Positions 6,935 to 64,000 are shown, numbered from the stretch's first letter. The stretch: DNA of 64,000 nt from an uncultured Thermoleophilia bacterium (GCA_963808735.1 CAWEHE010000012.1:55051-119050); one strand, 5' to 3'. Notes: generated by a model not told the origin, from the letters alone. Numbers and translations are program-made.

Positions 6935-7142
6935 CGCTCGGCTCCGCCCGTCGTCGCCCGGCCGCCACGCGCGCCATGCCGGCGCTCCCGCCGCGCCCGT
7001 CGCACGCGCCGCAGCGGACCCCGTCGCCCTCATGTCGGTGCGGCGTGCCGGCCGACTTTAGTCTGGAAGCGGCGTCGCGGTCACGCCGCGCGCGGAGTCC
7101 GGGGATCCACGTCGACAGAGACGGTGAAGCGGAGATGAGCCG

Positions 7143-15070: not shown

Positions 15071-16367
15071 TCAGCCGGCGGCCGTCGGGCGGTCGGCCGC
15101 CGTCACCCGGCTGCCGTGCGGCACGGCGAGCACGCCGGCGTCGTCGCCGTAGCGCGCGAGCGCCTCCGCGACGGCGTCGTCCACGCGCGCGAACGGCCGG
15201 AAGCCCATGCGGCGCACCACGTCGTCGGGGAACTCGGAGACCAGCCACACGTCGGCGCTCGTGAGCAGCCCGGCGATGGCCGCCGCCTTGTGCCCGCCGA
15301 GCACGAACTCCCGCCGGATGCGGTCGATCACCGCCCGCGGGTTCTCCATGTCGCCCATCCACGCCGCGAACGTCTCCTCGCCGAACCCCTCCGCGCACTC
15401 CGCGACGAGGATGATGGTCCCGCCGTCGCGCACCGCCCCCGACACGTTGTCGAGCGTCTTCTGCGCCTGGTAGAGGTTGATGTCCTTGGGGCTGCCGCCG
15501 GGCGAGGCGACGACGACGTCCACGGCGCGGTCGATGCGCATGTCGAAGAGCTCGTCGTAGCGGCGCACGCCCTCGGCGTGCGCCTCCAGGTAGTGGCCGG
15601 CGACGCAGTCGACGATCTGCTTCTTCTCGTTGAGCAGCACGTTGACGATGAAGTCGACGCCCACGAGGCCGCCGGCCTCGTCGATGTCGTCGCGCACCGG
15701 GTTGCCGCGCAGGATGCCGGCCTTGGCCGACGGCTCCAGCATCATGCTGTGGTTGGGCTGGATGGCGCTGCGCCGGCAGATGCCGGGCATGACGGCCTTG
15801 GCGCCGCCGCTGTAGCCGGCGAAGTAGTGGTACTCGAGGTTGCCGGTGCAGACCTTGAGGTCGGCCTCCACGTACGGCCGGAAGACCTCGAGCGGCGTGC
15901 CGCGGGAGGTGTGGCCGACGAGCACGCAGTCGTCCTCGTCGAGGTCAAGGCAGCGGTAGCGGTCCGCGACGGCGTCGCCGACGAGACGGCGGCGCTCCTC
16001 CTCGGTGTGCCGGCGGTGGCTGCCGAGCGCGAACAGGACGGTCACGCGCTCGGGCGGGATCGCGGCCAGCTCGTCGAGGACGAGCTGGAGGAAGCGGTAG
16101 GTCGGGCAGGGCCGCGTGACGTCGCTGACGACGATGGCGGCCGAGCCGGCCGAGGCCGCCAGCTCGCTCAGCGACGGTGCGCCGATGGGCGCGGCCAGCG
16201 CGGCGCGCACGCAGGCCAGCTCGTCGTCGACGCGTGGCCGGCGCCGGCGCGTTGCGGCGCGGACGGACGACGTCCACCAGGTTCCGCGCCGGGACGCGCA
16301 GCTCGAGCTGCTCGCGCCCGTATCCGAGCGTGCAGACGGGCGCTGGGCCCTCCGGGCCGCCCGTCAC
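15071..16367 (-). CDS. larA: Nickel-pincer-cofactor-dependent 2-hydroxyacid racemase/epimerase, LarA family; one frameshift near 16230
   Basis: ...CTLGYGREQLELRVPARNLVDVV / ...AALAAPIGAPSLSELAASAGSAAIVVSDVTRPCP...ALGSHRRHTEEE...CTGNLEYHYFAGYSGGAKAVMPG...NPVRDDI...NLYQAQKTLDN...GGHKAAAIA. These are LarA hallmarks. The GTG start overlaps the pgk TGA (GTGA). Confidence 0.85.
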
Positions 16368-17631
16368 GCCGGGCCCGTGGGCGGGAAGCGCTCCGCCGAC
16401 GCCTTGAGCGCCTCGATCACCGGCATCGGCTTGCCGCTGAGGAACTGCACCATGGCGCCGCCGGCCGTGCACACGTAGTCGAAGCGGCCGCCGAGGCCGA
16501 AGCGGTTCATGGCGGTCACGCTGTCGCCGCCGCCGAGGGCGCTGAAGCCCTGCGTCTCCGCCATGGCCTCCCACAGCGCCTTCGTGCCGTACTCGGTCTC
16601 CGGCTGCTCGAACACGCCGGCCGGGCCGTTGACGAACACGGTGCCGGCGGCGGCGATGACGGCCTCGTACTCGCGCCACGGTCCCGTGCCCGAGGTCGAC
16701 GAGCTGCTCGTCGACCGGCAGGTCGACCACGTCGACCTCCGCCCGCGCCCCGTCCTGCACGTACGCCAGGTCCGCCGGCAGCACGACCTTGTCGCCGTGC
16801 TCGGCGAGGATGGCCTTCGACTCCTCGACGAACTTCTCCAGCTGGCTCGCCCTGATGAACTCCATGGACGGCGCGCCGATGTCCACGCCTTCGGCGGCCA
16901 GCATGACGTTGGCCACCAGGCCGGCCGTGAGCACCGTGTCCACGACGCCGTCGCGCAGGGCCGCGGCCATCATCGGGAACGCCTCCTGGATCTTGGTGCC
17001 GCCGAGCAGGAAGACGCACGGGCGGGCCGGGTCCTCGCGCAGGTGCGCCAGGTTGGCGTACTCCTTCTCGAACAGCCGGCCCATGGCCGACGGCAGCAGC
17101 TGCTCGAAGCCGACCAGCGTGGGCTGCGAGCGGTGCGCGGCGGCGAAGGCGTCGCACACGTACAGGTCGGCGAGCGGCGCCAGCTTGCGCACCACCAGCG
17201 TCTTCGCCTGGTCCTCCGGCGAGAGGTTCAGCTTCGTCTCGAAGAGCGTGAGCTCCTCGCCGCAGAAGCGCACGTTGTCGAGGAGCAGCACCTCGCCGTC
17301 GGCGAGGCCGGCGACCGCGTCCCGCGCGGCCGGCCCGCAGACGTCGTCGATGAACCCGACCGGCCGCCCGATGAGCTCGCTCATCACCGCGGCGTGCGGC
17401 TCGGTGGAGGCGTAGTTGTGGTACTCCAGGTCGCCGCCCTGGTGGGCGAGCAGCACGACCTTCGCGCCGGCCTCCGCCAGCTCGCGCACCGTCGGCGCGC
17501 AACCCTTCAGCCGCGTGACGTCGCGCAGCCCGCCGGTCTGCCTTGTCGAGCGGCGCGTTGATGTCCACGCGGCACAGGACGGTCTTGCCCGCCCAGGCGA
17601 AGTCGTCGAGGGTGTTGATGCCGTACTTCAT
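16364..17631 (-). CDS. pgk: Phosphoglycerate kinase, archaeal-type; frameshifted (near 17540 and 16690)
   Basis: MKYGINTLDDFAWAGKTVLCRVDINAPLDK / VRELAEAGAKVVLLAHQGGDLEYHNYASTEPHAAVMSELIGRPVGFIDDVCG...LLLDNVRF...VCDAFAAAHRSQPTLVGF...FLLGGTKIQEAF / FVNGPAGVFEQPETEYGTKALWEAMAE...SALGGGDSV...YVCTAGGAMVQFLSGKPMPVIEALK. Confidence 0.85.
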
Positions 17632-17710: not shown

Positions 17711-18733
17711 TCAGGCGAGCCCCAGGTACTTGTTGGTCAGGCCCACGGCCTCGAGGCGGTCGGTCTGCATGCTCGAGCGCCGCGCGGATGCCGTCCATGG
17801 TCTCGGGGATCACCACCGCTTCCTGCGGGATGTTGATGGCGAACATGAAGTCGCGGCCGCTCTTGGCGATGGTCTCGTCGAACACGGCGATGTCGTACAT
17901 GTCGGCGCGCTTGTTGCCGAGGTCGCGGGCGTAGCGGAAGAGCGCCGCGTTGCTGTTGAAGCCGTCGGCGATCTTGACGTTGCGGATGCGCGGGTGCGCC
18001 TCGAACAGCTCGAGGGCCCGCTCCTTGCTGATGTCGCCCTTGGTCGTGGCGATCACGTTGATGATGTGGCCGTGCGTGGTGGGCACGTGCACGAGCAGGC
18101 CGGTGGCCTCGATGTGCGGCATGATCGTCATGAGGTCGAGCGGCCTGGTGGTTCGGCACGGGCTCGACCTGGGCCACGTCCACGAGCCCGCGGTGCGTGT
18201 CGCCGGGGTCGGCGACGCGGCGCACGATGGTGACGATGACGCGCTCCACGCCGACCTCGCGGTCGAGGCAGTCCACGGCGCGGATGAGGCCGGTGGTGTT
18301 GCAGCTCGTCAGCTTGAGGTAGTCCTTGCCGACGCCCTTCTCGTAGTTGGCGTAGCCGTGGAAGAACACGTCCACGATGTCGTTCTTCTCGCCGCCCTGG
18401 AAGATCGCCTTGACGCCCTTGGCCTGGTAGAGCTCCTTGTTCTTGCGGCCGACGCCGCCGGGCGTGGAGTCGAGCATGATGTCGACCTTGCCGAGCAGGT
18501 CGTCCATCGTGCCGCTCACGGGGATGCCGACCTCGTCGAAGGCGGCCTTCTGGCCGGCCTCGACGCACGTACAGGTCGTACGGCATGCCGGCCTCGCACA
18601 GCGCCCGCGTGGACAGGGTCGGGGCGACGTCGACGACGCCGACCAGCTCCATGTCCTCCTGCAGCGCCACGCCGTCGGCCAGCCGCTGGCCGATGACGCC
18701 GTACCCCGCCACACCCACTCTTGGCTTGCTCAT
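17711..18733 (-). CDS. gap: Type II (archaeal-type) glyceraldehyde-3-phosphate dehydrogenase; frameshifted (about 3 changes)
   Basis: MSKPRVGVAGYGVIGQRLADGVALQEDMELVGVVD / GVKAIFQGGEKNDIVDVFF...KDYLKLTSCNTTGLIRAVDCL...ERVIVTIVRRVADPGD / IMPHIEATGLLVHVPTTHGHIINVIATTKGDISKERALELFEAHPRIRNVKIADGFNSNAALF...MFAINIPQEAVVIPETMDGIRAALE. The KAIFQGGEK, SCNTTG and IVRRxADP motifs match archaeal GAPDH. The ATG overlaps the aminotransferase TGA (ATGA). Confidence 0.85.
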
Positions 18734-20164
18734 GTCTCCGCTCCTTGGAATGTCAGCTCGCGCCGCTCAGCCGCGCGGCGGTCGTACCCCAGGTCCTTCT
18801 CGACGACGGCGATGGACTCGTCGAGCACGCTCACGATGGTGTCGATCTGCTCCTTGGAGATGATGAACGGCGGCGCGACGGCGTGCACGTGGCCGCCGCC
18901 CAGCAGGCGCACGAAGACGCCGCGCTTGAAGGCCTCGTCGCGGATCTTCGCGGCGACGCCCTGGGCCGGCGCGAACCACTCGTGCGTGTCCTTGTCCTTC
19001 ACGTACTCGATGCCGGCCACCATGCCCACGCCGCGCACGTCGCCGACGATGGGGTGCTTGAGCAGGGTCTGAGGCCCTCCTGCAGGTACGGGCCGACCTC
19101 GGCGCAGCGCTCCACGAGCTTCTCGCGCACCACGATCTCGAGGTTGGCGATGCCGGCGGCGCAGCACAGCGGGTGGCCCATGTAGGTGGCGCCGCTCATG
19201 AAGGCCTCGCCCGGGCCGCCCAGGAACCCTTCGTACACGTGGTCGCGGGCGAGCACGGCGCCCAGCGGCAGGTAGCCGCTGACGAGAGGCCCTTGGCGAG
19301 CGTGACCAGGTCGGGGTTCGAGCCGAACTGCTCGAAGCCGAACCAGGTGCCGCTGCGGCCGAAGCCGGTGATGACCTCGTCGTTGATGACGAGCACGTCG
19401 TTGGCCTTGCAGATGTCGTTGACCATGGGCCAGTACTCCGGCGGCGGCGGGATGACGCCGCCGGTGCCGATCATGGTCTCGCCGAGCATGGTGCCGACGT
19501 TCTCGGGGCCGTAGAACTCGATCTCGTGCGCCACCTGCGTGGCGCACTCCATCTTGCAGTCCTCGCCGTAGGTCTTGTTCCAGGCGCACTGGTAGCAGTA
19601 CGGGGCGCCGAGCTTGATGAAGCCGGGCAGCAGCGGCTCGAACTTGGCGCGGTTCACGGTGAGGCCCTGGGCGCTGGTGCTGGTCATGGTCGTGCCGTGG
19701 TAGGAGCGCTCACGGAACATGACCATGTACTTGGTGCCCTTGCCCTTGTTGCGCCAGTACTGCCGCGCCATCTTGACGGCGGTCTCCACCGACTCGCCGC
19801 CGCCCAGCGTGAGGAACACCTTGTTCAGGTCGCCGGGCGCCAGTTCGGCGACCTTGGCGGCGAGCTTGATGGCCGGCTCGTTGGCGATCTGGAAGATGTG
19901 GTAGATCGCCAGCTTCTCCATCTGCGCCTTGATGGCGTCGTAGATCTCGGTGCGGCCGTGGCCGACGTTGACGGTCCAGAGGCTGGCGAAGGCGTCGATG
20001 TACTCGTTGCCCTCGGTGTCGTAGACGACGCAGCCCTCGGCCCGGTCCATGATGATGGGCTTGAGGTTCTGCATCTGCGTGAACGGCGGCCAGAGGTGCC
20101 CGAGGAAGTCCTCCTGCAGCGACTCCCCCTGAAGCGCGCCGCCGGCCTGCACGTCGTCTGCCAT
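18730..20164 (-). CDS. Class III PLP-dependent aminotransferase (omega-transaminase type); two frameshifts (near 19290 and 19075)
   Basis: MADDVQAGG...HLWPPFTQMQNLKPIIMDRAEGCVVYDTEGNEYIDAFASLWTVNVGHGR...FLTLGGGESVETAVKMARQYW...ERSYHGTT...VLVINDEVITGFGRSGTWFGFEQFG.NPDLVTLAKGL / SGYLPLGAV...MSGATYMGHPLCCAAGIANLE / ...HPIVGDVRGVGMVAGIEYV...GHVHAVAPPFIISKEQID. Confidence 0.85.
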
Positions 20165-20254: not shown

Positions 20255-21690
20255 TCAGAAGGCGGGAGCGACGCCGCACACGTCGGCGAGCGCGGCGAGC
20301 TGGTCGTCGCTCAGCGCCGGCCGCCAGTCCTCACGGGCCGCCAGCATGCGCCGCCACGCGCTCGCGCGCGACATCCACCTCGTCCTGGCCGTCGGCCTTC
20401 CAGGCGTCGTAGGACGTGCGCGCGGAGACGACCGAGCGGAACTGCTCGCCGGCGCGGACGCGCTTGCGCGTGTCCTTCTCGGCGAGGAAGTGCCCGCCGA
20501 TGCCCACCCGCTCGACCGCCTCGGCGAGGATCTCGTCGTGCGAGACGGTGACCTCGCCCAGCAGGCGGCGGATCATGGCCGGCGAGCTCGCAGTCGATGA
20601 CGATCTGCGGCAGGTACAGCAGGTCGACCGAGTCGAGCATGCCGACGCCGCCGGAGAGGATGTCCGCGCCGGCGGCGCACGACGTGAGGCCGCGGAGAGC
20701 CTTCTCGTACCCCGCCTGGATGCCGGGGTGCTTGGCGTCGGTGCCGAGGCCCGGCACCGTGACCGGCACCCCGAGCAGGTGGCCGACCTCGATGGACGCG
20801 GCCGCCATGAGCAGCGACTCCGGCGCGCCGTAGGCGACGCGGGCGGCGCGCATGTCCATGATGTTGCTGGACGCGCCGAAGAGCAGCTTGGCGCCGGGCA
20901 CCACGCTCTGCACGGCCGTGGCGACGCCCATGAACTCGGCGACGGCGAGCGTGACCCCGGCGGAGATGGTGATGGGCGCCGTCGCCCCCGACATCGGGAT
21001 CGTGTACACCTTGACCGGCACGCCGTTCGCGGCCGCCTCGATGTGGAAGTCGAGCGTGTCGCCGTCGGCCTGCAGCGGCGACGCGGCCGTGAGCAGCGTG
21101 CTGAACCGGGGGCGCGCCCTGAACGCGTCGAGGTCGCCGCAGACGATCTCGGCGATGCGCAGGAGCGGCTCGATCTGCGACGGGCAGTCGACGAACGTGA
21201 CGTGCTTGTCCGACTGCGTGAACATCGTGTAGAAGGTCGTGCGCTCGCGCACGTCCAGCGGGACGTCGTTGGCCGTCACCGTCGTCCAGATGAGGTCCAC
21301 CTCGGGCGAGGCGTCGAGGAGCGCCGTAGCCTTGCTGGAGGTCGTCCAGCGTGGAGAGCCGGCGCTCGCCGGTGGCGTCGTCCAGCACGAAGGCGCCGCA
21401 GCCCGAGGAGCAGAAGTGCGGCCCTCGCCGTCGGCCAGGCGCACGTCCTGCTCCGGGGTGGCGCCGGCCATGACCACCTCGCGCGGGCACGCCTCGAGCG
21501 CGTCGCGCACGAGCTGCGGAGGGAAGCGCACCACGCCGGTGGCGAAGTCCACCGTGGCACCGGCGGCGTCCAGCGCGCCGAGCGCCCGCGAGCCCGTCAT
21601 GCGCATCCCCACGCGCTCGAGGAGAGCCAGGGCCTCCTCGACGATCAGCGACTTCTCGGCATCGCTGAGCCAGGTCGTGCGCTGCTGCAT
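20255..21690 (-). CDS. Trimethylamine methyltransferase (MttB) superfamily protein, non-pyrrolysine type, copy 1; about 4 frameshifts
   Basis: MQQRTTWLSDAEKSLIVEEALALLERVGMRMTG... / GPHFCSSGCGAFVLDDATGERRLSTLDDL / LDASPEVDLIWTTVTANDVP...VTFVDCP...GVPVKVYTIPMSGATAPITISAGVTLAVAEF...SNIMDMRAARVAYGAPESLLMAAASIEVGHLLGVPV...GTDAKHPGIQAGYEKAL...GADILSGGVGMLDS / MIRRLLGEVTVSHDEILAEAVERVGIGGHFLAEKDTRKRVRAGE / ...ALSDDQLAALADVCGVAPAF. No in-frame TAG in the alignable core. Confidence 0.8.
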
Positions 21691-21749
21691 GGGGGCGTCC
21701 TTTCGCTTGCCCGCGCGGACGGGGACGGGCGCGCGGGGCTGGAAGAGCC

Positions 21750-21787
21750 GGGCGGGCGGCGGCCCCCTCCGAGGCCGCCGCCCGCCC
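21750..21787 (-). terminator. Perfect 15-bp GC hairpin between ABC ATPase stop and mttB-like start
   Basis: gggcgggcggcggcc (21750-21764), 8-nt loop ccctccga, ggccgccgcccgccc (21773-21787). It starts 6 nt after the TGA at 21793-21795 on the minus strand. Only a weak U-stretch (ucuucc) follows. Confidence 0.45.
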
Positions 21788-21792
21788 GCGGA

Positions 21793-23591
21793 TCAGGCGT
21801 CGACCGTGACCGGCTCGATGGTCGGCGTGTCGGCGAGGAGCTTGCGGGTGTACTCGTCCTGCGGGTTCGCGAGCACGTCGTCCGTCGGTCCGTACTCGAC
21901 GATGCGGCCCTCGCTCATGACCGCCACGTCGTAGGCGATGCTGCGGATGAGGGCCAGGTTGTGCGTCACGAACAGCATGCAGAGGCCGATCTCCTTCTGC
22001 AGGCGCACGAGCAGCTCCACGATGGAGGCCTGCACGGAGACGTCGAGCCACGACGTGACCTCGTCACAGACGAGCACGGTGGGCTCGGCGGCGAGGGCCC
22101 GCGCGATGGCCACGCGCTGGCGCTCCCCGCCCGAGAGCTGGTCCGGGTAGCGCCCCAGCAGCGTGTCGTCCAGCGAGACGAGATCGAGCACCTCGGCCAG
22201 ACGGTCCTCGCGCTGGTCCCGCGTGTAGTCGAAGAAGATCTGCAGCGGCTGCGAGAGGATCTGGGCGATCGTCTTGCGCGGGTTGAGCGAGCTGTACGGG
22301 TTCTGGAACACGTACTGGATCGAGTGGCGGAGCGCGCGCGAACGGCTGCGGGCGAGCCGCGGGAGCTCCTTGCCCTGGAAGCTGATCTCGCCCTCCACCT
22401 TGAACGGGTGCAGACCGGCGATGCAGCGGGCCAGCGTCGTCTTGCCGCTGCCTGACTCACCGACCAGCGCGAGGCACTCGTGCGCGCGCAGGGTGATGTC
22501 GATGTCGTGCAGGATCTCCTTCTTGCCGTACCAGGCGGTGACGCCGCGCACGGCGACGAGACCCTCCTCGCCGCCGCTCTGCGAGCGCCGCGCCGTCTTC
22601 GCCGGTGATGACCGGCGCCTGGTTGCGGACCTCCTCGTTGCGCCAGCAGCGCACGCGGTGGAACTCACCGACCTCGGCCTCCGGCGGCATCTCCTTCTCG
22701 CACTGCTCGATGGCGTAGGAGCAGCGCGGCTCGAAGGCGCACCCGGGCGGCCGGCGTCCGGGACGCGGCGCGAACCCGGGGATGCCCTCGAGCGTGCGCC
22801 GCCCGCTGAGCACCGGGATCGCGTGCAGCAGTCGGCGCGTGTAGGGGTGGCTGGCGCCGGCGAACAGCTCGGCCGCCGGGCCGATCTCCACGAGCCGCCC
22901 GGCGTACATGACGGCGATGCGGTCGGCCAGCTCCGCCACGACCGCGAGGTCGTGCGTGACGTACACGGCCGCGGCGCGGTGCGTCTTGGTGAGATCGCGG
23001 ATGGTGTCGAGCACGTGGGCCTGCGTGGTCACGTCGAGGCCGGTGGTGGGCTCGTCCAAGCACGATGATCTTGGGCCGGCAGGCGAACGCCATGGCCAGG
23101 GCCACGCGCTGCTGCTGGCCGCCGGAGAGCTGGTGCGGGTAGCGGCGCAGGAACTCCCTGTCGCTCGGCAGGAGCACCTCGGCCATCATCTCCGCGATGC
23201 GGTCCTGGCGCTCCTCGTCGCTCTTGCCGAAGTTGTGCACCTCGAGGATCTCGCGAAGCTGCAGGCCGATGCGCAGCGCGGGGTTCAGCGCCGAGCCCGG
23301 GTCCTGCGGCACGTAGCTGATCACGCCGCCGCGCAGCTGGCGCAGCTGGCCGGCGCCGAGCGAGAGCACGTCCTTCTCGTCGATCGTGATGCTGCCGCCG
23401 GAGATCTTGGCGCCGCGACGCTGGAAGTTGAGCAGCGACGTCGCGGCGGTGGTCTTGCCGGAGGCGGACTCGCCGACGAGGCCCAGGACCTCGCCCTCGA
23501 CGAGCTCGAAGTTGACCTCGTGGTCGATCTCGACGCCGGAGGGGTCGAGGGCGATCTCGAGATCCTTGACGGTGAGGATGATCTTGCTCAT
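21793..23591 (-). CDS. ABC transporter ATP-binding protein with two fused ATPase domains (DppD/DppF-like); frameshifts near 23060 and 22590
   Basis: Domain 1: [14 protein letters not shown] (Walker A), [15 protein letters not shown], then [12 protein letters not shown] after a shift, and SHPYTRRLL...CAFEPRC (oligopeptide C-terminal motif). Domain 2: [47 protein letters not shown]. The linker ...[13 protein letters not shown] / [14 protein letters not shown] joins the two. Confidence 0.8.
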
Positions 23592-23592
23592 C

Positions 23593-24577
23593 TCACGCCC
23601 CCGTGTCCCGCTCGATGCCGATCATGGCCCGCGAGATGCCGTCGGTGGCGAGGTTCACGCCGATCGTGAGGATGGCGATGAGCGCCACCGGGATGAACAC
23701 CGAGTAGGGCTGGATGATGAGGCCGATGCGGTTCTCGTTGATCATGAGGCCCCAGTCGCAGGCCGGCGGCTGCATGCCGAAGCCGAGGAAGGAGAGGGCG
23801 GCGATGAGGCCGATGGAGTAGGTGAGGCGCAGGCCGAACTCCACGAACAGCGGGCTCGTGATGGTCGGCAGGATCTCTCCGAAGGCGATCTTGAGGCGCG
23901 ACACGCCCAGCGACTCGGCCGCCTTGACGAAGTCGCGCTCCTTGACCTCCAGCGTGGATCCGCGGGCGACGCGGGCGATGCGCGGCGCGTGCGAGAGGCC
24001 GACAGTGAGCACGATCAGCCAGAGGCGCGGCCCCAGCACCGACACGAGCAGCAGCACCAGCACGATCTGCGGGAAGGCGAGGAAGACGTCGAGGAGACGC
24101 ATGATGACGTCGTCCACGGCCGCACGCGCGTAGCCGGCGAAGAGGCCGAGCGAGACGCCGATGACCATGCCGATGGCGGTCGCGATGAACGAGAGGATGA
24201 GCACGGAGCGGCCGCCGTAGAGCACGCGGCTGAGCACGTCGCGGCCGAGCACGTCGCCGCCGAGCCTGGCCACGGAGCTGGGCTTGGCGAACGGCGCCAC
24301 GACGAACTCGAAGGGCGAGTGCGGCGCCACGTAGGGGCCGATCACGGCGATCGCCAGGATGAGCGAGGAAGAGGCCGAGGCCGATCTGCGTGCGCCGGTA
24401 GTGCAGGGCGTCGGCGAGCAGCTGCAGCCACTCGCTGCGGCGCCGCTTGCCGCGGACCGGCGCCATGCCCAGGTCGTGGCCCAGCTGCGGCTCGAGCGGC
24501 TCGTTGAGGCCTTCGTCGGGGCCCAGGTTGATGTCGCTGGTCACTCCCATTCTGAGGATGGAGGCGTCTGTACTCAT
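23593..24577 (-). CDS. ABC transporter permease (DppC/OppC-like); one frameshift near 24350
   Basis: ...IGPYVAPHSPFEF...GGDVLGRDVLSRVLYGGRSVL...DVIMRLLDVFLAFPQIVLVLLL...VKERDFVKAAESLGVSRLKIAFGEILP (EAA-type loop). The ATG overlaps the upstream permease TGA (ATGA). Confidence 0.8.
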
Positions 24578-25535
24578 TGCAGACCCGTCCTCAGCCGCGG
24601 GCTGACGAGGATGGTGAGGATGTCGGCGATGAGGTTGAAGCCGACGTAGAGGCTGGCGATGAGGAGCACGATGGCCTGGATGACCGGCACGTCGCGGTTG
24701 GCGACGGCGTCGACGAGGCCCGAGCCGATGCCGGGGTAGTTGAAGAGGTACTCGACGACCACGACGCCGCCGGCGAGCCAGGCCAGGTTGAGGGCGATGA
24801 CCTGGATCGCGGGGATGACCGCGTTGGGCAGGGCGTGCCGCCGCAGCACGATGTTCTCGGGCATGCCCTTGAGGCGCGCCATCTGCACGTACTCGCTCTC
24901 GAGCACCTCGATCATGGAGGCGCGCAGGATGCGGATGATGTAGGGCGCCACGGCGAGGATCAGCGTGAGCGCCGGGAGGATGAGCATGTCCATCTGCTGC
25001 CAGATGGACTCCCCGGGTTCACGCGCGATACCGCCGGGAAGATGTGGAAGACCTGCGTGGCCAGCAGCATGATCAGGAGGATGCCGATCACGAACTCGGG
25101 CAGGGCGGCGAGGCCCAGGCTCCCGAGCGAGACGGCCGTGTCGAAGGGTCTGTCTCGTAGCAGCCCGCTCAAGCTGCCGATGAGGATGGAGATGGGGATG
25201 CTGATGATGGCGGCCACGAACACGAGCGCCGCCGAGTTCATGATGCGGTTGCCGAGAAGCGTCATGACCGGCTGAGAGGCCACGAGGGAGTCGCCGAGGT
25301 CGCCCCTGACGATGTTACCGAGCCATTTTGCGTACTGCGTGGTGGCCGGCTCGTTGAGCCCCAGCCGCTCGCGCAGTTCCTTGAGGCGCTCGGGCGTGGC
25401 CGAGCGGCCCAGGATGGCGCGCGCCGTGTCGCCGGGAAGCGCCTGCGTGGCCGCGAACACGAGCACCGACACGAGGAAGAGTGTCAGTATCCCGAGCCCC
25501 ACGCGGCGCAGGATGATCTTCAGCAAGGGTGGCAC
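24574..25535 (-). CDS. ABC transporter permease (DppB/OppB-like); one frameshift near 25010
   Basis: MPPLLKIILRRVGLGILTLFLVSVLVFAATQALPGD...LGLNEP...YAKWLGNIVRGDLGDS / ...LILPALTLILAVAPYIIRILRASMIEVLESEYVQMARLKGMPENIVLRRHALPNA. Confidence 0.8.
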
Positions 25536-25621
25536 TTCCCGCCGACCTCCTTTGGTACGCAGGTGGGGCCGGCGCCGGTAGCGGCGCCGGCCCCACTCCG
25601 GTCAGTTCGCGCTGCCGTCCG

Positions 25622-27289
25622 TCAAGCGAAGTACACGAGATTGAAGCGGCCCTTGTTGGCGGCCTCGGCGCCCCACGTGTCGGGGATGACGCCGCCGAGC
25701 TTGTCGCTGTAGCCGTCCAGCAGGTTGTTGAACGACCAGACGATGTTGCCGCCGGAGTTGTACTCGATGGTGCTGGCCTCGGTGATCAGCTCGTTGCGCT
25801 TGGCGTCGTCCACCGTCTTCATGGCTTCTTCGACCAGGGCCACCCACGTGGGGTCGTCCCAGTGCGTCTCGTTGTACACGGCTCCCGGGATGGTGCCGAC
25901 CGACGTCTGCGGCAGGTAGTTCCGCGTCGCCCAGAAGTCCATGGCGAAGGTCCACTTGAGGTAGTCGTCGCCGTAGAACACGCTGGGGTCGACCTGCTTG
26001 ACGTTGATGGTCACGCCGGCGGCCTTGGCCTGCTGCGCGTACACCTGGGCGGCCTGCACGCCGCCGGCGCCGGTGGCCGTGGAGCAGACGAGCTCGACGG
26101 TGAGGTTACCGTCGTAGCCGGCCTTCTTGAGCAGCGACTTGGCCTGCTCGATGTCCTGCTCACGCTGTGGCAGGTCGCTCGGGTAGCCGGGGTCGAACGG
26201 CGCGTACATGTCGTTGCCGACCCACCCGTAGCCGCCGTAGGCCTGGTCGATCATCTGCTGGCGGTCGAGGATGTACTTGAAGGCCTGGCGGACGTCGACG
26301 CTGTCGAACGGCTTCTGGTCGACGCGCACCGTGAAGGGCTGCCAGCCGCCGGTCTTGGCCTCGAGAAGCGTGTAGCCGGGAGTAGCCTTGAGCGTGGCCG
26401 CCTGGGTGGCGTCGACGATGACCGCGTAATCGACCTGGCCGCCGAGCAGGGCGTTGAGCTTGGCGGTGGGATCGGCGAACTCGACGAACGTCAGGGTGTC
26501 TGCGTAAGGACCCTCGCCCCAGTAGTTCTCATTGGCGGCGAACTCCTCCTGCTGGCCCGGGGTGAACGACGTGACCTTCCACGGGCCGGTGCCGATGGCG
26601 CCCTCCATGCCCTTGGGCGCGTAGTCCACCGGCACGATGGCGTTGTTGTAGTACGCCAGGGCCTCGTAGAAGATCACGTTGGGCTTGTCGAGCGTGAACT
26701 GCACCGTGAGGTCGTCCACCTTCTTGATGCCGGCGGCGTTGAGACCGGAGAGCATGTCCAGGCCGATGGCGCCTGTCTTGGGATCCAGGATGCGGTTGAA
26801 GCTGTAGACCACGGCGTCCGCGTTGACCGGCGAGCCGTCGTGGAACGTGAGACCCGACTTGAGCTTGACCGTGTGCGTCTGGCCGGTCGAGTCAGGTTCG
26901 TAGGTCTCCGCCAGCAGCATCTCCAGCTTGTGCTCGGGGTCCCACCCCATGAGCGAGTCGTACAGCTGGAACTGCGTGCTGATCTGCGTCTCTGTGGTGG
27001 CGATCTGCGCGTCGAGCGTGTCCTTGGCGGAGCCGCCGCCGATACCCACCTTGAGGGCGCCGCCCTTCTTGGGCCCGCCGGCAGCGGCCGAACCCGAGGC
27101 GGCCGGCGAAGCGGTCTCGCTCGAGCTGCTGCTGCCGCACGCGGAGGCCACGGAGCCGAACGCAGCGACCGCGCCGACGGCGGCCGCGCCCTTCAGCAGG
27201 CCACGCCGCGTCACGCGCTTGTCGTTGACCACCTCGTAGATCTCACCGACTTCGAACCCTGAGTTCTTGTCCTGCTGAGTCACTTGCAC
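25622..27289 (-). CDS. ABC transporter substrate-binding protein, family 5 (peptide/opine/nickel type), TAT/lipobox signal; intact
   Basis: Uninterrupted 555-codon ORF. RRGLLKGAAAVGAVAAFGSVASACGSS gives twin-Arg plus lipobox Cys. GGALKVGIGGGSAKDTLD...TYEPDSTGQTHTVKLKSGLTFHDGSPVNADAVVYSF is typical of SBP_bac_5. The start could be the GTG 6 nt downstream. Confidence 0.85.
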   Translation of the reverse strand: MQVTQQDKNSGFEVGEIYEVVNDKRVTRRGLLKGAAAVGAVAAFGSVASACGSSSSSETASPAASGSAAAGGPKKGGALKVGIGGGSAKDTLDAQIATTETQISTQFQLYDSLMGWDPEHKLEMLLAETYEPDSTGQTHTVKLKSGLTFHDGSPVNADAVVYSFNRILDPKTGAIGLDMLSGLNAAGIKKVDDLTVQFTLDKPNVIFYEALAYYNNAIVPVDYAPKGMEGAIGTGPWKVTSFTPGQQEEFAANENYWGEGPYADTLTFVEFADPTAKLNALLGGQVDYAVIVDATQAATLKATPGYTLLEAKTGGWQPFTVRVDQKPFDSVDVRQAFKYILDRQQMIDQAYGGYGWVGNDMYAPFDPGYPSDLPQREQDIEQAKSLLKKAGYDGNLTVELVCSTATGAGGVQAAQVYAQQAKAAGVTINVKQVDPSVFYGDDYLKWTFAMDFWATRNYLPQTSVGTIPGAVYNETHWDDPTWVALVEEAMKTVDDAKRNELITEASTIEYNSGGNIVWSFNNLLDGYSDKLGGVIPDTWGAEAANKGRFNLVYFA

Positions 27290-27487
27290 TCCCCCTGTCC
27301 TGAGACTTCCACCGGCTCAGCCCACCCCGGCCGGCATGTGCGGCCCGCACCCGCGCGGGTCGAGACGTCTGCTGTGACCTGCTCTTCTACGAGTGATCGA
27401 ACCCCCTTGGACTGCTCTGGCGAATCGCGGGAGGCGGGGACTGTCGGCACAATGTATCCGCCCGGGTGGTTCGCCAAGTTGGAAGGG

Positions 27488-27517
27488 ACTCTAGAAGCCC
27501 GCGTTCCGTCTTGTCAA
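27488..27517 (-). promoter_or_regulatory. Candidate promoter of the ABC transporter operon, implying an approximately 190-nt leader
   Basis: Minus strand reads TTGACA (27517-27512), 18 nt, TAGAGT (27493-27488). The downstream leader contains nested inverted repeats (GGCGAA...CCCGGGCGG...CCGCCTCCCG...TTCGCC; ACCCGC/GCGGGT). Confidence 0.35.
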
Positions 27518-27776
27518 TAACGAATGGTCCGGGCACACTAGCACCCGCGGTGACCGGGGACAAGGCCTAGTAACGGAATCAGAAGGAAGAACCCCACAAG
27601 GCCTCAGCTTCTTCATCGACTCTGCCGATTTGGTTTGCCTTGTCGCAACGGAACGAGCAGAAGACTTGCAGATGCAGAACAGCGACTCCATCCATCGGCG
27701 CCCGCCTTGCGTCCCTCCGTCCCGGCGGATACGACGACCCGTATGATAGGTGGCGGGTGTCCTGTTCGTCAACGCA

Positions 27777-27805
27777 TTGACAGTAGTTCCTCCGGTCGAT
27801 ACTAC
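27777..27805 (+). promoter_or_regulatory. Candidate promoter of the Lrp/AsnC regulator gene
   Basis: TTGACA (27777-27782), 17 nt, TACTAC (27800-27805). The -10 is weak, and an alternative GATACT sits 2 nt upstream. Confidence 0.3.
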
Positions 27806-27877
27806 TGAGTACGGGAGTATCACCGTTCCCGATGCCCCTGACCTGTACTGGCTGCGGGAGGACTCGAGCCCGCGCGA

Positions 27878-28390
27878 GTGGGATATCATGCGGGAACGAC
27901 GGAACAGGGGGGCGACGTGGACGATCTCGACCGGCGGATCCTTGTCAAGCTGCAGGAAGACGGCAGCCTGACGAACGCACGTCTCGCCGAGACCCTCGGT
28001 CTGTCCCAGTCGGCGATGTCCGAACGCGTGCGCCGCCTGCAGCAGGAAGGCCACATCCAGGGCTACCGCGCCATCATCGCTCCCGGCAGCCTGGGCATCG
28101 GCCTGCAGGCGTTCGTGGCGGCGGAACTCGTGCGGCACGGCACGGACTGCATCGAGGAGTTCGAGGGGGGCGTGCGGGCCTTGCCGGAGATCCGTGCCTG
28201 CTACCACGTCGCCGGCCGCTTCGACTATCTCCTGCACGTCGCCGTGCGCGACCTCGAGCACCTCGGCCGGGTGGTCAAGCACGACATCGCCGCCATCCCG
28301 GGCGTGGACCGGGTCGAGACCATGCTGGTCTACTCCGAGGTCAAGCCCGACGCCGGCTGGCCGGAGCCCGACGACGGGCCGGCGGAGTAG
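27878..28390 (+). CDS. Lrp/AsnC family transcriptional regulator; intact
   Basis: DDLDRRILVKLQEDGSLTNARLAETLGLSQSAMSERVRRLQQEGHIQGY (HTH) followed by a RAM/ACT-like domain (...ACYHVAGRFDYLLHVAVRDLEHLGRVV...IPGVDRVETMLV). An alternative start is GTG 27917. Stop is TAG. Confidence 0.85.
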   Translation: MGYHAGTTEQGGDVDDLDRRILVKLQEDGSLTNARLAETLGLSQSAMSERVRRLQQEGHIQGYRAIIAPGSLGIGLQAFVAAELVRHGTDCIEEFEGGVRALPEIRACYHVAGRFDYLLHVAVRDLEHLGRVVKHDIAAIPGVDRVETMLVYSEVKPDAGWPEPDDGPAE

Positions 28391-28435
28391 CCGCGCGGGC
28401 GGCGCGCAAGGCGCGCCGACGTCCGCTGCCGTAGC

Positions 28436-29866
28436 TCAGTCGACCGCGCCGCACACCTCTGCCAGGGCGGCGAGCTGGTCGTCGCTCAGCAGTGAGCCGT
28501 TCCCCTGTTCTTCTCTGCCGCCAGCGTGCGCTCGACGATGTCGCGCGCCTCGTCGATCTCCTGGCGGCCCTCGGCGATCCACTGCTCGAAGGGGAGGCGG
28601 CTGCCGATGACCGGCTGGAAGTGTTCGCCCGCGCGCACGCGCTCGCGCGTGGCCTTCTCCTTGAGGAAGTTGCCGCCTACGCCGACGCGCTCGATCATGT
28701 CGAGCATGATCGTCTCCGGCGTGATCTCCGCACCGTCGACGACGCGCTTGACCATGCGCGCCACCTCGGCGTCGATGGGCACCATGGGCAGGTGCCACAC
28801 GCTCGACGAGTCGAGCGCGCCGAAGCCGCCGCTGATGAGGTCGACCCCCGTCAGGGCCGCCGGCAGGGCCTTCATGCCCTTCTCGTAGCCGGCCTGCAGC
28901 CCCGGGTGCTTGGCGTCGCTCGAGAGCCCGGGGTTGTGGACCGGCAGACCGAGGTGGTGGCCGATCTCCACCGAGGCGACACCCATCAGGGTGTTCTCGG
29001 GCGACCCGAGCGACATGGAACTCGTGCGCATGTCCAGGATGCCGGGGCCGCAGCAGGCGAGGACCGGCGCGCCGGGGGCGGCGACCTGCGTGACGGTCAC
29101 CATGCCCAGCAGCTCCGCCCACATCTGCGCGAGCGTGCCGGCGACGGTGATCGGCGACGTGGCGCCGACCATGGTCATGCAGTAGGCGAAGATGGGTGCG
29201 CCCAGCCGCGCGAACTCGCACGTGACGTCGAGCAGGCGGCTGTTCACTTCGAGCGGCGCACGGACGGCGCACACAGGCCGAGGCGCGGGTGCCGCGGTGC
29301 GCCTCGAGGCTGCCGCTGAGGATCTCCATGATGCGCCGCACCGGCTCGGTCTCGTGCGGGCAGTCCACCATCACGAGCGGCTTCGAGGTGCTGCTGAGGT
29401 ACGCGTGGTACTCCAGCAGCTCACGCTGCTCGATGGGGACGTCGTTCGCGGTCGCGAACGTCCACATGAGGTCGAGCTCCGGCGTGGCGTCCATGACCGT
29501 GGAGCCCTCGCGGATGTCCTGGAGGGTCGCGGGCCTCAGCTGCCCGGTGCGGAAGTCGAGCGTCTTGGCGATGCAGGCGGAAGGGTTGAAGTGCGGGCCG
29601 TTGACACGGTCGAAGACGATGTCCTGCGCCGCGGTGGCCCCGGCCATGCCCCACGCGGGGGGCAGCGTGGACAGCGCCTCGCGAACGAGCGCCTCGGGCA
29701 TGCGCACGACACCGGTCTCGTGATCCACGACGGCGCCGCGCTCTTCCAGGGGCCCGAGGATCTCCGCGCCCTTGAAGCACATGCCCACGCGCTCGAGCAC
29801 GGCCAGCGCAGAGTCGATGATGAGGTCCCGCTCACTCGCGCTCAGCCAGCTCAGCCTGCACTTCAA
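28436..29866 (-). CDS. MttB superfamily methyltransferase, non-pyrrolysine type, copy 2; frameshifts near 29275 and 28500
   Basis: TTG start after AAGGAG. MKCRLSWLSASERDLIIDSALAVLERVGMCFKG...GPHFNPSACIAKTLDFRTGQLRPATLQDI...MDATPELDLMWTFATANDVP...LVMVDCP / ...GAPIFAYCMTMVGATSPITVAGTLAQMWAE...GILDMRTSSMSLGSPENTLMGVASVEIGHHLGLPV...SSDAKHPGLQAGYEKGM...GVDLISGGFGALDS...MIERVGVGGNFLKEKATRERVRAGE / ...LSDDQLAALAEVCGAVD. About half of the residues match copy 1 by eye. Confidence 0.8.
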   Translation of the reverse strand: MKCRLSWLSASERDLIIDSALAVLERVGMCFKGAEILGPLEERGAVVDHETGVVRMPEALVREALSTLPPAWGMAGATAAQDIVFDRVNGPHFNPSACIAKTLDFRTGQLRPATLQDIREGSTVMDATPELDLMWTFATANDVPIEQRELLEYHAYLSSTSKPLVMVDCPHETEPVRRIMEILSGSLEAHRGTRASACVRRPCAARSEQPPARRHVRVRAAGRTHLRLLHDHGRRHVADHRRRHARADVGGAAGHGDRHAGRRPRRAGPRLLRPRHPGHAHEFHVARVAREHPDGCRLGGDRPPPRSAGPQPRALERRQAPGAAGRLREGHEGPAGGPDGGRPHQRRLRRARLVERVAPAHGAHRRRGGAHGQARRRRCGDHAGDDHARHDRARRRRRQLPQGEGHARARARGRTLPAGHRQPPPLRAVDRRGPPGDRRGARHRRAHAGGREEQGNGSLLSDDQLAALAEVCGAVD

Positions 29867-36880: not shown

Positions 36881-38536
36881 TCACCCGCAGTACTTCTCGC
36901 GCAGCACCTTCTTGTCGAGCTTGCCGACGCTCGTCTTGTCGAGCTCGGGCACGAAGAGGATCCTGTCGGGCACGCCGTACTTGGGGATCACGCCCTTCTG
37001 CGCGCTGTCCAGGGCGAAGCGCCGGATGTCCTCGGCGTCGTCCGGCGCGCCCTCCCTGAGCGACCACCAGGGCCAGCGGCCGCTCGCCCCACTTGTCGTC
37101 CGGCACGCCGACCACGGCCACCTCGCTCACGCCGGGATGCTGCAGGAGAGGTTCTCGAGGTCGAGGGACGAGACCCACTCGCCGCCGGTCTTGATGACGT
37201 CCTTGATGCGGTCCGACACCTGCAGGTAGCCGTCGGGTCGATGAAGCCGACGTCGCCGGTGTGCAGGTAGCCGCCGGCCCACAGGGTCCTCGGAGTTCTG
37301 CGCGTCCTTGAGGTACCCATCGTCACCCACGGCGCCCGCACGACGACCTCGCCGGTGGCCTTGCCGTCGTGGCGCACGTCGCGCATCTCGGGGTCGACGA
37401 CGCGCAGGTCGACGAGCGGATCGGGCGCCCGGCGCGGCAGCGGACCTCGAGCTCCGCGTCGTCGTCGAGGTCCGCATCGCCGGGTCCAGGTGGCGCCAGC
37501 GATGAGGACGGGCACGGTCTCGGACAGGCCGTAGCCGCCGATAGATGTCGATGCCGCGGTCCAGCGCCTCCGTGCAGACGGCCCTGGGCAGCGGCCGCGC
37601 CGCCGATGATGACCTTCCAGCCGCGCACGTCTGCCGTCGCCACGGCCGCGCTGCGCAGCAGCATGTACATGATGGTGGCCACGCAGTGCGAGAACGGTGA
37701 CCTTCTCGCGCTCGATGAGGCCGAGCAGCCCCGTCCGGCTCGTACCGCCCCGGGTACACCTGCTTCACGCCCATGCAGCGTGGCCATGTACGGATAGCCC
37801 CACGCGTGGACGTGGAACATCGGCGTGATCGGCATGTAGACGTCGTCGCGCGTGGAAGCCGCCCTGGGACGGCGCCATGGCCATGGCCGTGAGGCCGCAG
37901 AGGGTGTGCAGCACGAGCTGCCGGTGGCTGTAGTAGACGCCCTTCGGCAGGCCGGTGGTGCCGGTGGTGTAGAAGGTGGTGGCGCAGCGTGTCCTCGTCG
38001 AGGTCGGGGAAGTCGTAACGCGCCGGGCTCAGCGCGCGAGCATGCGCCTCGTACTCGCCGTCCAGAGGCACGCTCGTGGCCGGCTGGCCCGTCCAGGTCG
38101 CTGAGCAGGATGACCTTGCGGACCCTGCCGCAGCCGGTCCCAGAGCCGCTCCAGGACGGGCAGGAACTCGGCGTTGACGAGCAGCACGTCGTCCTCGGCG
38201 TGGTCGATCGTGTAGAGGATCTGCTCGGGGGAGAGGCGCACGTTCACGGTGTGCAGCACCGCGCCCATCATGGGCACGGCGAAGAAGCACTCCAGATAGC
38301 GGTGGCTGTCCCAGTCCAGGACGCCGACCGTGTCGCCCGGCTCGACGCCGAGGGCGGCGAGGCCGGCGGCCAGACGGTGCACGCGGGCTTCGAACTCGCT
38401 GTAGGTGTAGGCGCACGCGGTCGCGGTAGACGATCTCCTGGTCGCCGGCGTGCGCCATGGGCGCGTGCAGCAGGTGCTTGATGAGGAGCGGGTAGCGGTA
38501 CGCCTCGGGCGTCCGGGCGATCAGCTTGGGCGGCAT
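36881..38536 (-). CDS. AMP-dependent acyl-CoA synthetase/ligase (ANL superfamily); heavily frameshifted (6 or more changes)
   Basis: [39 protein letters not shown] / [69 protein letters not shown] / [21 protein letters not shown] / [13 protein letters not shown] / GYLKD...[27 protein letters not shown] / [29 protein letters not shown] / ...[35 protein letters not shown]. Confidence 0.75.
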
Positions 38537-38556
38537 GCTCGACCTCCGGATGCCGG

Positions 38557-39807: not shown

Positions 39808-39810
39808 GCG

Positions 39811-41077: not shown

Positions 41078-41231
41078 GCGTCCGGTCCCTCCAGCGCACA
41101 GCGCGTAAGCAGCCGGCGCGGACTCCGCAGGATGTGCGGCACAACACGCATCTTACCGCAGGGCCTCCGGTCGAACAACGGGCCGGCTGACATGGTTACG
41201 CATCCGACTCGGAGTCCCGGACGCCCTGCGG

Positions 41232-42008: not shown

Positions 42009-42155
42009 CTGCTACCTTCCTTCGCTGCGTCACGGCCGGATGCCGGGACAGTCTACCGCCGCCCGAGGCGGCGCCGGCGCCGGGCCCTGCGGTAGAGGCC
42101 CGGCGCCGGCGGAAGCACGGCGGAGAAAGGGGGAGGACCTCCGCCGCGCACGCCG

Positions 42156-43046: not shown

Positions 43047-43251
43047 CGCTCCTCCTCTCGAGCGTGCGGGCGCCTCTGACGCCTGGTGTGGGGCGCGCCC
43101 GGCGGCGCACCCCACACCAAAGCCTCTTGGTCGCTCAACCTGGGATGCCCCTTACGGCGCACCCCACGTCGAGTCCTCCTCCGGAGGGCGATCCAGCCTC
43201 GGAGTGGGCGCCCGTCACCCCCTCGGGCACGCAGAAGCCCCGCGCCTGCCG

Positions 43252-44559: not shown

Positions 44560-44625
44560 AGGAACCCTCCCGTCCGTCGTCCGGCCCACGGAGTCGCGGA
44601 CCGGCGAATCTTCTGCATCAGGGGG

Positions 44626-44655
44626 ATTCTACCCGCACAGTATCCTGCCGGTCAA
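44626..44655 (-). promoter_or_regulatory. Candidate sigma-70-type promoter of the 435-aa gene / BKACE cluster
   Basis: Minus strand reads TTGACC (44655-44650), 18 nt, TAGAAT (44631-44626), about 65 nt upstream of ATG 44559. Confidence 0.45.
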
Positions 44656-46046: not shown

Positions 46047-46128
46047 GTGTGAACCAGGAGGTTGACGAAGGAGAGCGGTGGCGGCACGCCGCTGCGACGG
46101 GCCGCCACCGCGAAGGTCACGAAGAGCC

Positions 46129-63252: not shown

Positions 63253-64000
63253 CTACAGCCTCTTCAGGCAGGCGATCGGGACGTCGAGCAGTTCGGAGAT
63301 GTTGCGCTTGGCCTCGATGCCCCTGCGGCAGCCGGGCACGGCGGTGATGACGCCGATGTCCAGCTCCTGGCGCAGGCCGCGCATGACGGTGGAGTCGGCC
63401 AGGTCGTCCACGCTCACGTGGAGCTTGTCGGCCACGTACTTCTTCGCCTCCGGGAGCCGCATCTTGGTGTGGAGCTGCACCCTGGCCACCAGATCTCCGG
63501 TGGTCCTGATGCCGCCCATGCCCGACGCGAGCGCGTGGCTCATCGACATGCCGTACGGGTCGCCCGTGCCGACCTACAAGCCGTCGACGCGGCCGATCTC
63601 GACCATGGCCGCGCTGGCCCTGGTGAGCACGTCGGCCGGCGGGACCTCGAACATCGGCACGCCGCCGACGCCCATGCCCACGTTGGCGTGCACGGGGATC
63701 GTGGCGACGCGCGAGCACTCCTTGACGATGGTCACCGAGCGGGCCACGTTCCACGGCACCGACCTGGCGCGAGTTGGTGTTCACGACCGGGCCGAAGATG
63801 TGGGCGCCGGCCTCCTCGACGACCTTGACCTGCTGGTGCGGCCACATGCCGGCGAGGCGCGTGCCCTTGTACTCCACCTCGCCGTGGAAGCCCGAGGACG
63901 AACTCGGCCGCCATGCCGACCTCGATGGCGAGGTTCGGTCGTCTTCGCCAGCTCCTCCACCGTCAGCAGCGTGGCGTAGAACTCGGCGTCGCCGATGGAC
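63253..64000 (-). CDS. mtbB: Dimethylamine:corrinoid methyltransferase (MtbB-like), C-terminal about 250 codons; in-frame TAG at 63574-63576 at the pyrrolysine position; about 3 frameshifts; 5' end beyond the window
   Basis: Joined minus-strand reading: [19 protein letters not shown]... / [14 protein letters not shown] / [41 protein letters not shown] / [173 protein letters not shown]. It is collinear with my recollection of Methanosarcina MtbB (...LAGLWPHQQ...GMGVGGIPM...VEIAGVDGI-Pyl-IGVGDPLGM...AAGDLVARM...ELDIGIITSVPG...). Confidence 0.8.

Follow-up and report, generated by a model that had tools for sequence, protein, structure and literature searches.

The MttB superfamily of methyltransferases (Pfam PF06253) holds both pyrrolysine (Pyl) enzymes, such as MttB of Methanosarcina barkeri (7XCL), and non-Pyl members, among which the characterised paralogs MtgB, MtcB, MtyB, MtpB and MthB act on different quaternary amines, MtcB on carnitine. 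In MtgB of Desulfitobacterium hafniense (2QNE/9YCE), which transfers a methyl group to the Co(I) of a corrinoid protein, the contacts with glycine betaine have been defined experimentally (Y97, R312, H348 and F356); a salt bridge to the acidic group of the substrate is made by R312, an Arg that every functionally characterised non-Pyl member keeps, and these all act on acidic quaternary amines (PMC13080624). Genes of this kind may be found apart from those of their partners: in Ruegeria pomeroyi separate locus numbers are carried by the MtgB paralogs, by MtgC, the single corrinoid protein, and by MtgD, the tetrahydrofolate (THF) methyltransferase, as many as seven pfam06253 paralogs being considered to rely on a common core, and the Eubacterium paralogs interact with a single corrinoid subunit (PMC12478193). 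Two non-Pyl paralogs, copy 1 and copy 2 (table 1), lie in a stretch of 64,000 nucleotides (nt) from an uncultured Thermoleophilia bacterium (GCA_963808735.1 CAWEHE010000012.1:55051-119050), called the window in the following. As judged from their sequences, both belong to a distinct, biochemically uncharacterised subfamily. What is new here is this subfamily with its divergent pocket, together with a conserved operon made up of importer, MttB, aminotransferase, GAPDH, PGK-like kinase and either malate racemase or D-malate/tartrate dehydrogenase; the interest of the locus lies in the subfamily and in this catabolic operon, and not in the absence of partner genes, on which an earlier reading of the same DNA (the sequence-only reading) had dwelt.

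On the evidence of family models and alignments, both genes are intact MttB-superfamily methyltransferases of the non-Pyl kind. The frame-corrected proteins pass the gathering cutoff of the MTTB profile (25 bits) with the scores listed in table 1 and cover positions 31-490 (copy 1) and 32-474 (copy 2) of its 500, which bears out the family assignment made in the sequence-only reading. Homology extends over residues 11-450 in phmmer, with E = 4e-47 to MtgB (9yce/2qne; 26-28% identity) and 2e-46 to MttB (7xcl; 28-29% identity), the latter sharing the DAK...Q(A/S)G(Y/H)EK core. The two copies are 46% identical over 474 residues by BLASTP, and the family core motifs and the C-terminal tail LSDDQLAALA-VCG are present in both, in line with the earlier description of old paralogs agreeing at about half of their positions. 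Stitched copy 1 is 87% identical to intact 477-amino-acid (aa) database proteins over 100% of the length, and the orthologs of copy 2 in five related loci (L001, L005, L007, L009 and L012) are 68-84% identical to it. Neither stitched frame contains an in-frame stop codon, so that the reported lack of an in-frame TAG also stands; the Pyl position of M. barkeri MttB aligns with a sense-codon Gly in copy 1 and Ser in copy 2; the Rfam element PYLIS-mttB (PYLIS_3), which is found at the Pyl-type genes of L016, L020 and L021, has no match at either copy; and the TIGR02369 equivalog model of Pyl-MttB (cutoff 525) gives 325.6 bits for copy 1 and 307.4 for copy 2.

These proteins had to be stitched, since the coding frame, traced by GC3- and stop-aware frame segmentation, changes every few hundred bases over most of the window, conserved genes included. 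Copy 1 needed four corrections (near 21426, 21334, 20575 and 20348) and copy 2 needed two (near 29293 and 28516). Taken as real lesions, six frameshifts over two MttB genes, with most neighbouring genes similarly disrupted, would describe a degenerating catabolic island. However, when contigs of four freshwater-sediment metagenome runs were aligned to both genes, independent short-read contigs from closely related populations showed a single-base indel relative to the window at each of the six predicted frameshift sites, four of them in copy 1 (20348/9, 20575, 21334 and 21426) and two in copy 2 (28516 and 29293). The stitched proteins are moreover full-length, the frameshifts are spread across most of the window, and gene calls are likewise fragmented in related contigs of metagenome-assembled genomes (MAGs) with MFD names. 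The correction of all six sites in independent contigs, the lack of in-frame stops and the fragmented MFD gene calls together point to consensus indel errors of an error-prone, long-read-like assembly rather than to gene decay; the degenerating island is thus exceedingly improbable, and MttB pseudogenes are ruled out by contigs carrying none of the six frameshifts. Every gene call in the window needs frame correction.

The window has a G+C content of ~71%, its sequence turns up again in freshwater-sediment and wetland metagenomes, and the orthologous loci belong, by their titles, to MAGs of uncultured Thermoleophilia and Actinomycetes. Its genes include indolepyruvate:ferredoxin oxidoreductase-type enzymes, an ADP-forming acyl-CoA synthetase, a LarA homolog and a Pyl enzyme, all of which fit an anaerobic lifestyle, and the host is an uncultured anaerobic Thermoleophilia-like actinobacterium of anoxic freshwater sediment.

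Within the superfamily, the placement of the two copies follows from residue tables and pairwise identities. At the positions of MtgB Y97, R312, H348 and F356, copy 1 has C, T, G and V and copy 2 has C, H, G and S, so that none of the four contacts is kept in either and MtgB (glycine betaine) orthology is ruled out. The same divergence runs through the clade, which counts at least 117 clusters at at least 52% identity to copy 1 and recurs in freshwater-sediment and wetland metagenomes. At the R312 position of its 117 members the six commonest residues listed (A, I, T, M, L and S) account for 112 and do not include Arg, and the Y97 position is Cys in 115. It is the roughly equal distance from MtgB and from Pyl-MttB, the loss of every MtgB contact residue and the absence of the R312 equivalent that set the subfamily apart. 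As its pocket resembles that of no characterised MttB-superfamily enzyme, the methyl donor is not predictable from the known members, and homology, as read from these residues, gives no substrate assignment.

A methyl donor other than a quaternary amine, such as a sulfonium, methylthio or neutral/hydroxylated ammonium compound, would account for the loss of both the carboxylate-binding Arg and the aromatic cage. The idea draws on the replacement of all four MtgB contacts, on the Cys conserved at the pocket position, and on the recurrence of sulfotransferase, ATP sulfurylase and, in some relatives, sulfate-permease genes beside the cluster. It is nevertheless unlikely: the same operons encode a BetI-type TetR regulator, amine methyltransferases of the Pyl type and an aminotransferase, all of which argue for an amine, and there is no direct evidence for a sulfur substrate.

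With a methylated (probably quaternary) amine as the imported substrate, each MttB would move a methyl group onto the Co(I) of a small corrinoid protein, presumably by the same chemistry as MtgB, and another methyltransferase would then hand it on, presumably to THF; the corrinoid protein, the second methyltransferase and a reductive activase would be encoded elsewhere and shared with the Pyl-type MtbB/MttB. Which compound is demethylated, what accepts the methyl group and where the partner genes lie are inferences in this scheme, and we consider it probable that the two copies are corrinoid-dependent methyltransferases with unlinked partners. In contrast to MtgB, they have no adjacent gene for a corrinoid protein or a THF methyltransferase. 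A Pfam scan of the predicted coding stretches of the window in frameshift-tolerant translation, the ABC permease and ATPase genes excepted, found no B12-binding, pterin-binding, UroD-type or RamA-type domain, and tblastn of the corrinoid protein of a related operon against the window gave no match at E <= 1e-3. The sequence-only reading was therefore right that no corrinoid or methyl-acceptor partner lies within the 64 kb: neither a corrinoid protein, nor a second methyltransferase, nor an activase is encoded there. Nor was any cobalamin riboswitch or tRNA-Pyl found in the window and the key loci.

Related genomes show where such a partner may be sought. In an operon arrangement here called type B, found in full in L020, the gene order is ABC importer, CocE/NonD hydrolase, non-Pyl MttB, BetI-type TetR, MtbB with TAG, MttB with TAG, one or two corrinoid proteins, aminotransferase, GAPDH and PGK; tblastn matches agree with this arrangement, corrinoid gene included, in L014-L017 and L019. 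The L020 gene at 15544-16206 has B12-binding and B12-binding_2 domains, and among NCBIfam models its product matches the MtgC/MtbC corrinoid families best, without reaching the curated cutoff of any of them. Across L020 12316-16206, as in L014-L017 and L019, Pyl-MtbB and Pyl-MttB share the operon with non-Pyl MttB, corrinoid protein and omega-aminotransferase, and MtmB is missing. Among the available genomes in which the window's own MtbB has an ortholog, L021 (89% identity) is the closest; it has the order TetR, MtbB, corrinoid protein, non-Pyl MttB, Pyl-MttB and, directly downstream of this island, the MtbB ortholog, the corrinoid gene lying ~3-4 kb upstream of the latter. The same position in the window would fall just past base 64000, and from synteny with L021 the corrinoid gene is probably a few kb beyond the right end. 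No THF/coenzyme M methyltransferase or RamA-type activase was found in the flanks of L016, L017, L020 and L021 by open reading frame (ORF) reading and Pfam calls.

The partner-less pair is thus ordinary and not an anomaly. Its oddity, implied by the sequence-only reading, dissolves with the corrinoid genes of type B operons and of the L021 island, with published systems whose partners are unlinked, and with the Actinobacteriota MAGs from wetlands already known to express Pyl-encoding mttB and mtbB (PMC10805028). The best precedent is the Ruegeria pomeroyi MtgBCD(E) system, in which several pfam06253 paralogs are unlinked to a single shared corrinoid protein and THF methyltransferase (PMC12478193), although that organism is an aerobic marine alphaproteobacterium with methionine-synthesis-coupled methyl transfer, while the present host is an anaerobic sediment actinobacterium with Pyl-type enzymes and MttB proteins of another subfamily. 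Corrinoid partners immediately outside the window, which would make this an ordinary system, were approached in the form of the L021 position ~3-4 kb past 64000, by synteny only. Two points weigh against this picture of unlinked partners: no corrinoid protein, second methyltransferase or activase was seen in the source genome itself, and the genomes from which the partner location is read have an MtbB at most 89% identical.

Were the copies true orphans, they would work without a corrinoid protein, transferring methyl groups directly to THF or another acceptor, or would not be methyltransferases at all. The empty 64 kb and a pocket unlike that of all characterised members, with Cys in place of MtgB Tyr97 in nearly the whole clade, are compatible with such a role. 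It is, however, very unlikely, given that orthologs at 57% identity share an operon with corrinoid proteins, that in the sister genome L021 the neighbouring methyltransferase island includes a corrinoid gene, that unlinked partners are the published norm, and that the Pyl-type MtbB encoded in the same genome as the two copies, whose family takes its name from the transfer of methyl groups to a corrinoid protein, implies that one exists.

That MtbB, cut by the window end (table 1), has an in-frame TAG at 63574-63576 and the Rfam element PYLIS_2 at 63477-63576 (64.8 bits). With its Dimeth_Pyl match, these features agree with the earlier call of a Pyl-type MtbB and, alongside two non-Pyl MttBs, with the view that the organism combines Pyl and non-Pyl methyltransferases. 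Neither pyl biosynthesis genes nor tRNA-Pyl were found in the window, which comes from a high-G+C actinobacterial genome.

Table 1. Main features of the window, with coordinates counted from its first base.
Feature	Coordinates	Strand	Evidence
Pyl-type dimethylamine methyltransferase MtbB, C-terminal two-thirds, cut by window end	63254..64000	-	Pfam Dimeth_Pyl 294 bits
MttB copy 2, non-Pyl paralog	28436..29866	-	~477 aa after two corrections; Pfam MTTB 217 bits
Lrp/AsnC regulator	27878..28390	+	Pfam AsnC_trans_reg and HTH_AsnC
Family-5 (Opp/Dpp/Nik-type) ABC substrate-binding protein, first gene of the operon	25622..27289	-	SBP_bac_5 281 bits
Two ABC permeases and two ATPases (Dpp/Opp-type), each frameshifted by assembly	21793..25535	-	Frame segmentation
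MttB copy 1, non-Pyl MttB-superfamily methyltransferase	20255..21690	-	477 aa after four single-base corrections; Pfam MTTB 245 bits
Class-III omega-aminotransferase, directly downstream of copy 1	18746..20164	-	Pfam Aminotran_3 309 bits
Archaeal-type (type II) phosphorylating GAPDH-like dehydrogenase	17713..18733	-	NCBIfam NF003251 388 bits (cutoff 185)
PGK-like kinase	16381..17631	-	Pfam PGK 352 bits
LarA-family racemase, nearest malate racemase LarAH6 group	15073..16330	-	NCBIfam NF052593 495 bits (cutoff 500)

Copy 1 belongs to a catabolic operon, probably under Lrp control, with copy 2 just upstream. Related genomes with MttB1 orthologs at 57-88% identity keep the same gene order, namely Lrp, family-5 binding protein, two permeases, two ATPases, MttB1, aminotransferase, type II GAPDH, PGK and LarA homolog, and copy 2 frequently stands just upstream. 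The Lrp/AsnC gene is divergent from the ABC-MttB1 operon and convergent with copy 2, as had been noted from the sequence and as orientation and Pfam domains now agree, and it takes the same position in L005, L006, L007, L009 and L012. The family-5 binding protein is syntenic in nearly all related loci, and the orthologs of the frameshifted permeases and ATPases in relatives have BPD_transp_1, ABC_tran and oligo_HPY domains. For the aminotransferase, which is 81-90% identical in relatives, the top NCBIfam matches are unnamed class-III (PRK) families, with the omega-aminotransferase AptA lower in the list.

The three enzymes encoded after the aminotransferase make up a core that can be followed beyond the MttB genes. 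The GAPDH-like protein has the catalytic cysteine motif SCNTT, as LTSCNTTGL, and scores 306 bits with TIGR01546 (cutoff 233) in addition to the match in table 1. The PGK-like protein reads HQGGD where two aligned canonical PGKs (2cun and 1php) have H-x-G-K/R-P, a motif whose basic residue binds the 3-phosphate; other basic residues (TR, NVRF, AHR) are kept, and across its clade the sequence reads HQG(G/D/S), none of the 78 loci having Arg or Lys there. The LarA homolog falls short of the NF052593 cutoff of 500 bits, as do its intact orthologs (475-477 bits), and this is the best model by ~95 bits; the Q-K and GHK (H-K) signatures are present, and the loop has Y-F instead of Y-K. The H-K pair is a signature of malate racemases (PMC7583248, PMC11770544). 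In L016, L017 and L020 the LarA slot is taken by a member of the TIGR02089 tartrate dehydrogenase equivalog (472.8 bits, cutoff 470.4). Tartrate dehydrogenases of this family also oxidatively decarboxylate D-malate. Two unrelated types of enzyme acting on D-malate would thus alternate in one slot, which points to D-malate as the likely product of the preceding aminotransferase, GAPDH-like and PGK-like steps.

Given that product, a route can be proposed in which the substrate would be L-carnitine or a close analogue, with the skeleton (CH3)3N+-CH2-CH(OH)-CH2-X, fully demethylated and oxidised to D-malate; as a whole this extension is tentative, and we hold it to be possible rather than likely. 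Acting together, aminotransferase, phosphorylating aldehyde dehydrogenase and acyl-phosphate kinase would convert R-CH2-NH2 into R-COOH with a gain of ATP; if D-malate is what they yield, the starting amine would be (R)-4-amino-3-hydroxybutyrate, i.e. fully demethylated L-carnitine. The non-Pyl MttB would take the first methyl group off the quaternary amine; the second and third would be removed by Pyl-MttB and then Pyl-MtbB, acting on substituted tertiary and secondary amines and not on free trimethylamine or dimethylamine, a possibility raised by the type B operons. These have exactly three methyltransferases, from families for quaternary, tertiary and secondary amines, followed by the aminotransferase, and the presence of three kinds with no MtmB fits stepwise demethylation to a primary amine. 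The omega-aminotransferase would turn 4-amino-3-hydroxybutyrate into (R)-malate semialdehyde, the GAPDH-like enzyme would convert this to an acyl phosphate, and the PGK-like enzyme would release D-malate with substrate-level formation of ATP; D-malate would then become L-malate by the action of a nickel-pincer malate racemase or, in some genomes, be oxidatively decarboxylated by the dehydrogenase.

Malate semialdehyde and D-malate are also intermediates of the aerobic L-carnitine pathway of Acinetobacter baumannii (CntAB, malic semialdehyde dehydrogenase and a decarboxylating D-malate dehydrogenase), where malic semialdehyde from L-carnitine has been found by experiment to give D-malate specifically (PMC11353897). 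The type B relatives resemble this pathway in that their operon ends with a tartrate-dehydrogenase-family gene, whose product would consume D-malate. That pathway relies on an oxygenase that releases trimethylamine and on a non-phosphorylating aldehyde dehydrogenase (PMC11353897), whereas the proposed route would need no oxygen, would pass the methyl groups stepwise onto a corrinoid protein, would involve an aminotransferase and would conserve energy through the acyl phosphate. The removal of all three N-methyl groups from L-carnitine or an analogue independently of oxygen and with no release of trimethylamine, leading to D-malate through a recruited GAPDH/PGK pair, is rather doubtful. In the literature no natural malyl-phosphate or 4-amino-3-hydroxybutyrate pathway was found, the engineered MalP pathway alone being described.

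A serious rival, and a distinct possibility, is that the downstream genes stand outside the methyltransferase pathway, GAPDH and PGK having an ordinary gluconeogenic role while MttB1 and the importer, perhaps with the aminotransferase, remove one methyl group from an osmolyte-type quaternary amine. The characterised non-Pyl systems do take off a single methyl, as in the conversion of choline to N,N-dimethylaminoethanol, or in that of glycine betaine, where dimethylglycine and sarcosine are demethylated in separate steps, as opposed to the three removals proposed here. The GAPDH-like protein, 87-97% identical in relatives, is also conserved like a housekeeping enzyme. To follow the pair further, a GAPDH-anchored set of 80 metagenomic loci (L022-L101) was assembled, in which PGK follows GAPDH in 59 of the 60 informative loci and a LarA-like or TTC gene lies nearby in at least 44 of 73; the G+C of these loci varies (0.54-0.63 in three checked). 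The specific tie of the GAPDH/PGK pair to MttB genes is weakened by this set, distant loci keeping PGK and Mar/TTC and not the aminotransferase or methyltransferases. A gluconeogenic role does not readily account for the link between the methyltransferases and the aminotransferase-GAPDH-PGK-Mar/TTC block, which survives rearrangement (they are upstream of it in most loci and downstream in L038), nor for the alternation of two D-malate-acting enzymes in one slot, D-malate not being a central metabolite. The loss of the canonical phosphate-binding residue throughout the PGK-like clade speaks in the same direction, as does L005, in which the tblastn matches of aminotransferase and GAPDH overlap by 4 nt.

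Several observations weigh against the carnitine-type route itself. The subfamily lacks the R312 Arg, kept even in the carnitine enzyme MtcB, as well as both cation-pi aromatics, so that its substrate may not be an acidic quaternary amine; the missing Arg and the peptide-type binding protein, in particular, do not favour free carnitine. To our knowledge the usual carnitine and betaine importers do not work with family-5 binding proteins, and we know of no Pyl enzyme for substituted amines. Further, the GAPDH-like protein passes the curated cutoffs for type II GAPDH; the aminotransferase and the methyltransferases accompany it only in close relatives (GAPDH identity at least 81%); and distant loci set GAPDH-PGK beside a 2-oxoacid dehydrogenase complex (E1/E2/E3 genes of the pyruvate/acetoin-dehydrogenase type), transketolase and malic enzyme.

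Should the carnitine-type route nonetheless prove correct, the core of GAPDH-II, PGK-like kinase and Mar/TTC would be a module of wide occurrence, so far unrecognised, that turns malate semialdehyde into malate, the operon would define a new anaerobic degradation route for carnitine-type compounds that avoids trimethylamine, pyrrolysine enzymes would gain a new role, and a GAPDH/PGK pair of archaeal type would have a function outside glycolysis. In any case the conserved operon yields testable predictions in the form of candidate substrates for each of seven enzymes. In wetlands, methylated amines feed methanogens and bacterial methylotrophs alike (PMC10805028).

Other genes of the window touch on these subjects to varying degrees. 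A sulfotransferase (Sulfotransfer_5) and an ATP sulfurylase at 44831-46858 (-) recur beside the Lrp-ABC-MttB cluster in L002, L008, L011, L015, L018, L019 and L021, with a SulP permease also beside it in some relatives, which suggests a possible tie to a sulfated or sulfonated substrate. At 37729-43047 (-) lies a cluster of thiolase, AMP-forming acyl-CoA ligase, beta-lactamase-family protein, SDR and BKACE genes (the last with 329 bits); the BKACE (beta-keto acid cleavage enzyme) family includes dehydrocarnitine cleavage enzymes, and in L001 the SDR and thiolase orthologs adjoin the MttB2 ortholog. The stretch ~41235-46048, which holds the SDR, BKACE, ATP sulfurylase and a 424-aa gene, is free of frame switches. 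The 424-aa ORF (43257-44529, -) is intact, with a strong coding signal and no frameshift, and has no Pfam or NCBIfam match.

A DUF3786 protein is encoded at 6279-6935 (-; 147 bits); its candidacy as an accessory of corrinoid systems was set aside, as no literature in support of such an association was found. The genes for a molybdopterin oxidoreductase and its iron-sulfur subunit at 54176-56668 (-) have a G+C of ~65%, against 71-75% around them, and this patch may have been acquired horizontally. Finally, a second Lrp regulator is grouped at 47057-53480 (+) with a D-2-hydroxyacid dehydrogenase, an aminotransferase, a GlcD/GlcF-type FAD-linked oxidase and a fumarylacetoacetate-hydrolase-family protein, and is followed at 57595-60370 (-) by LutABC-type lactate utilisation genes; the two groups form a hydroxy-acid metabolism island near the racemase operon.

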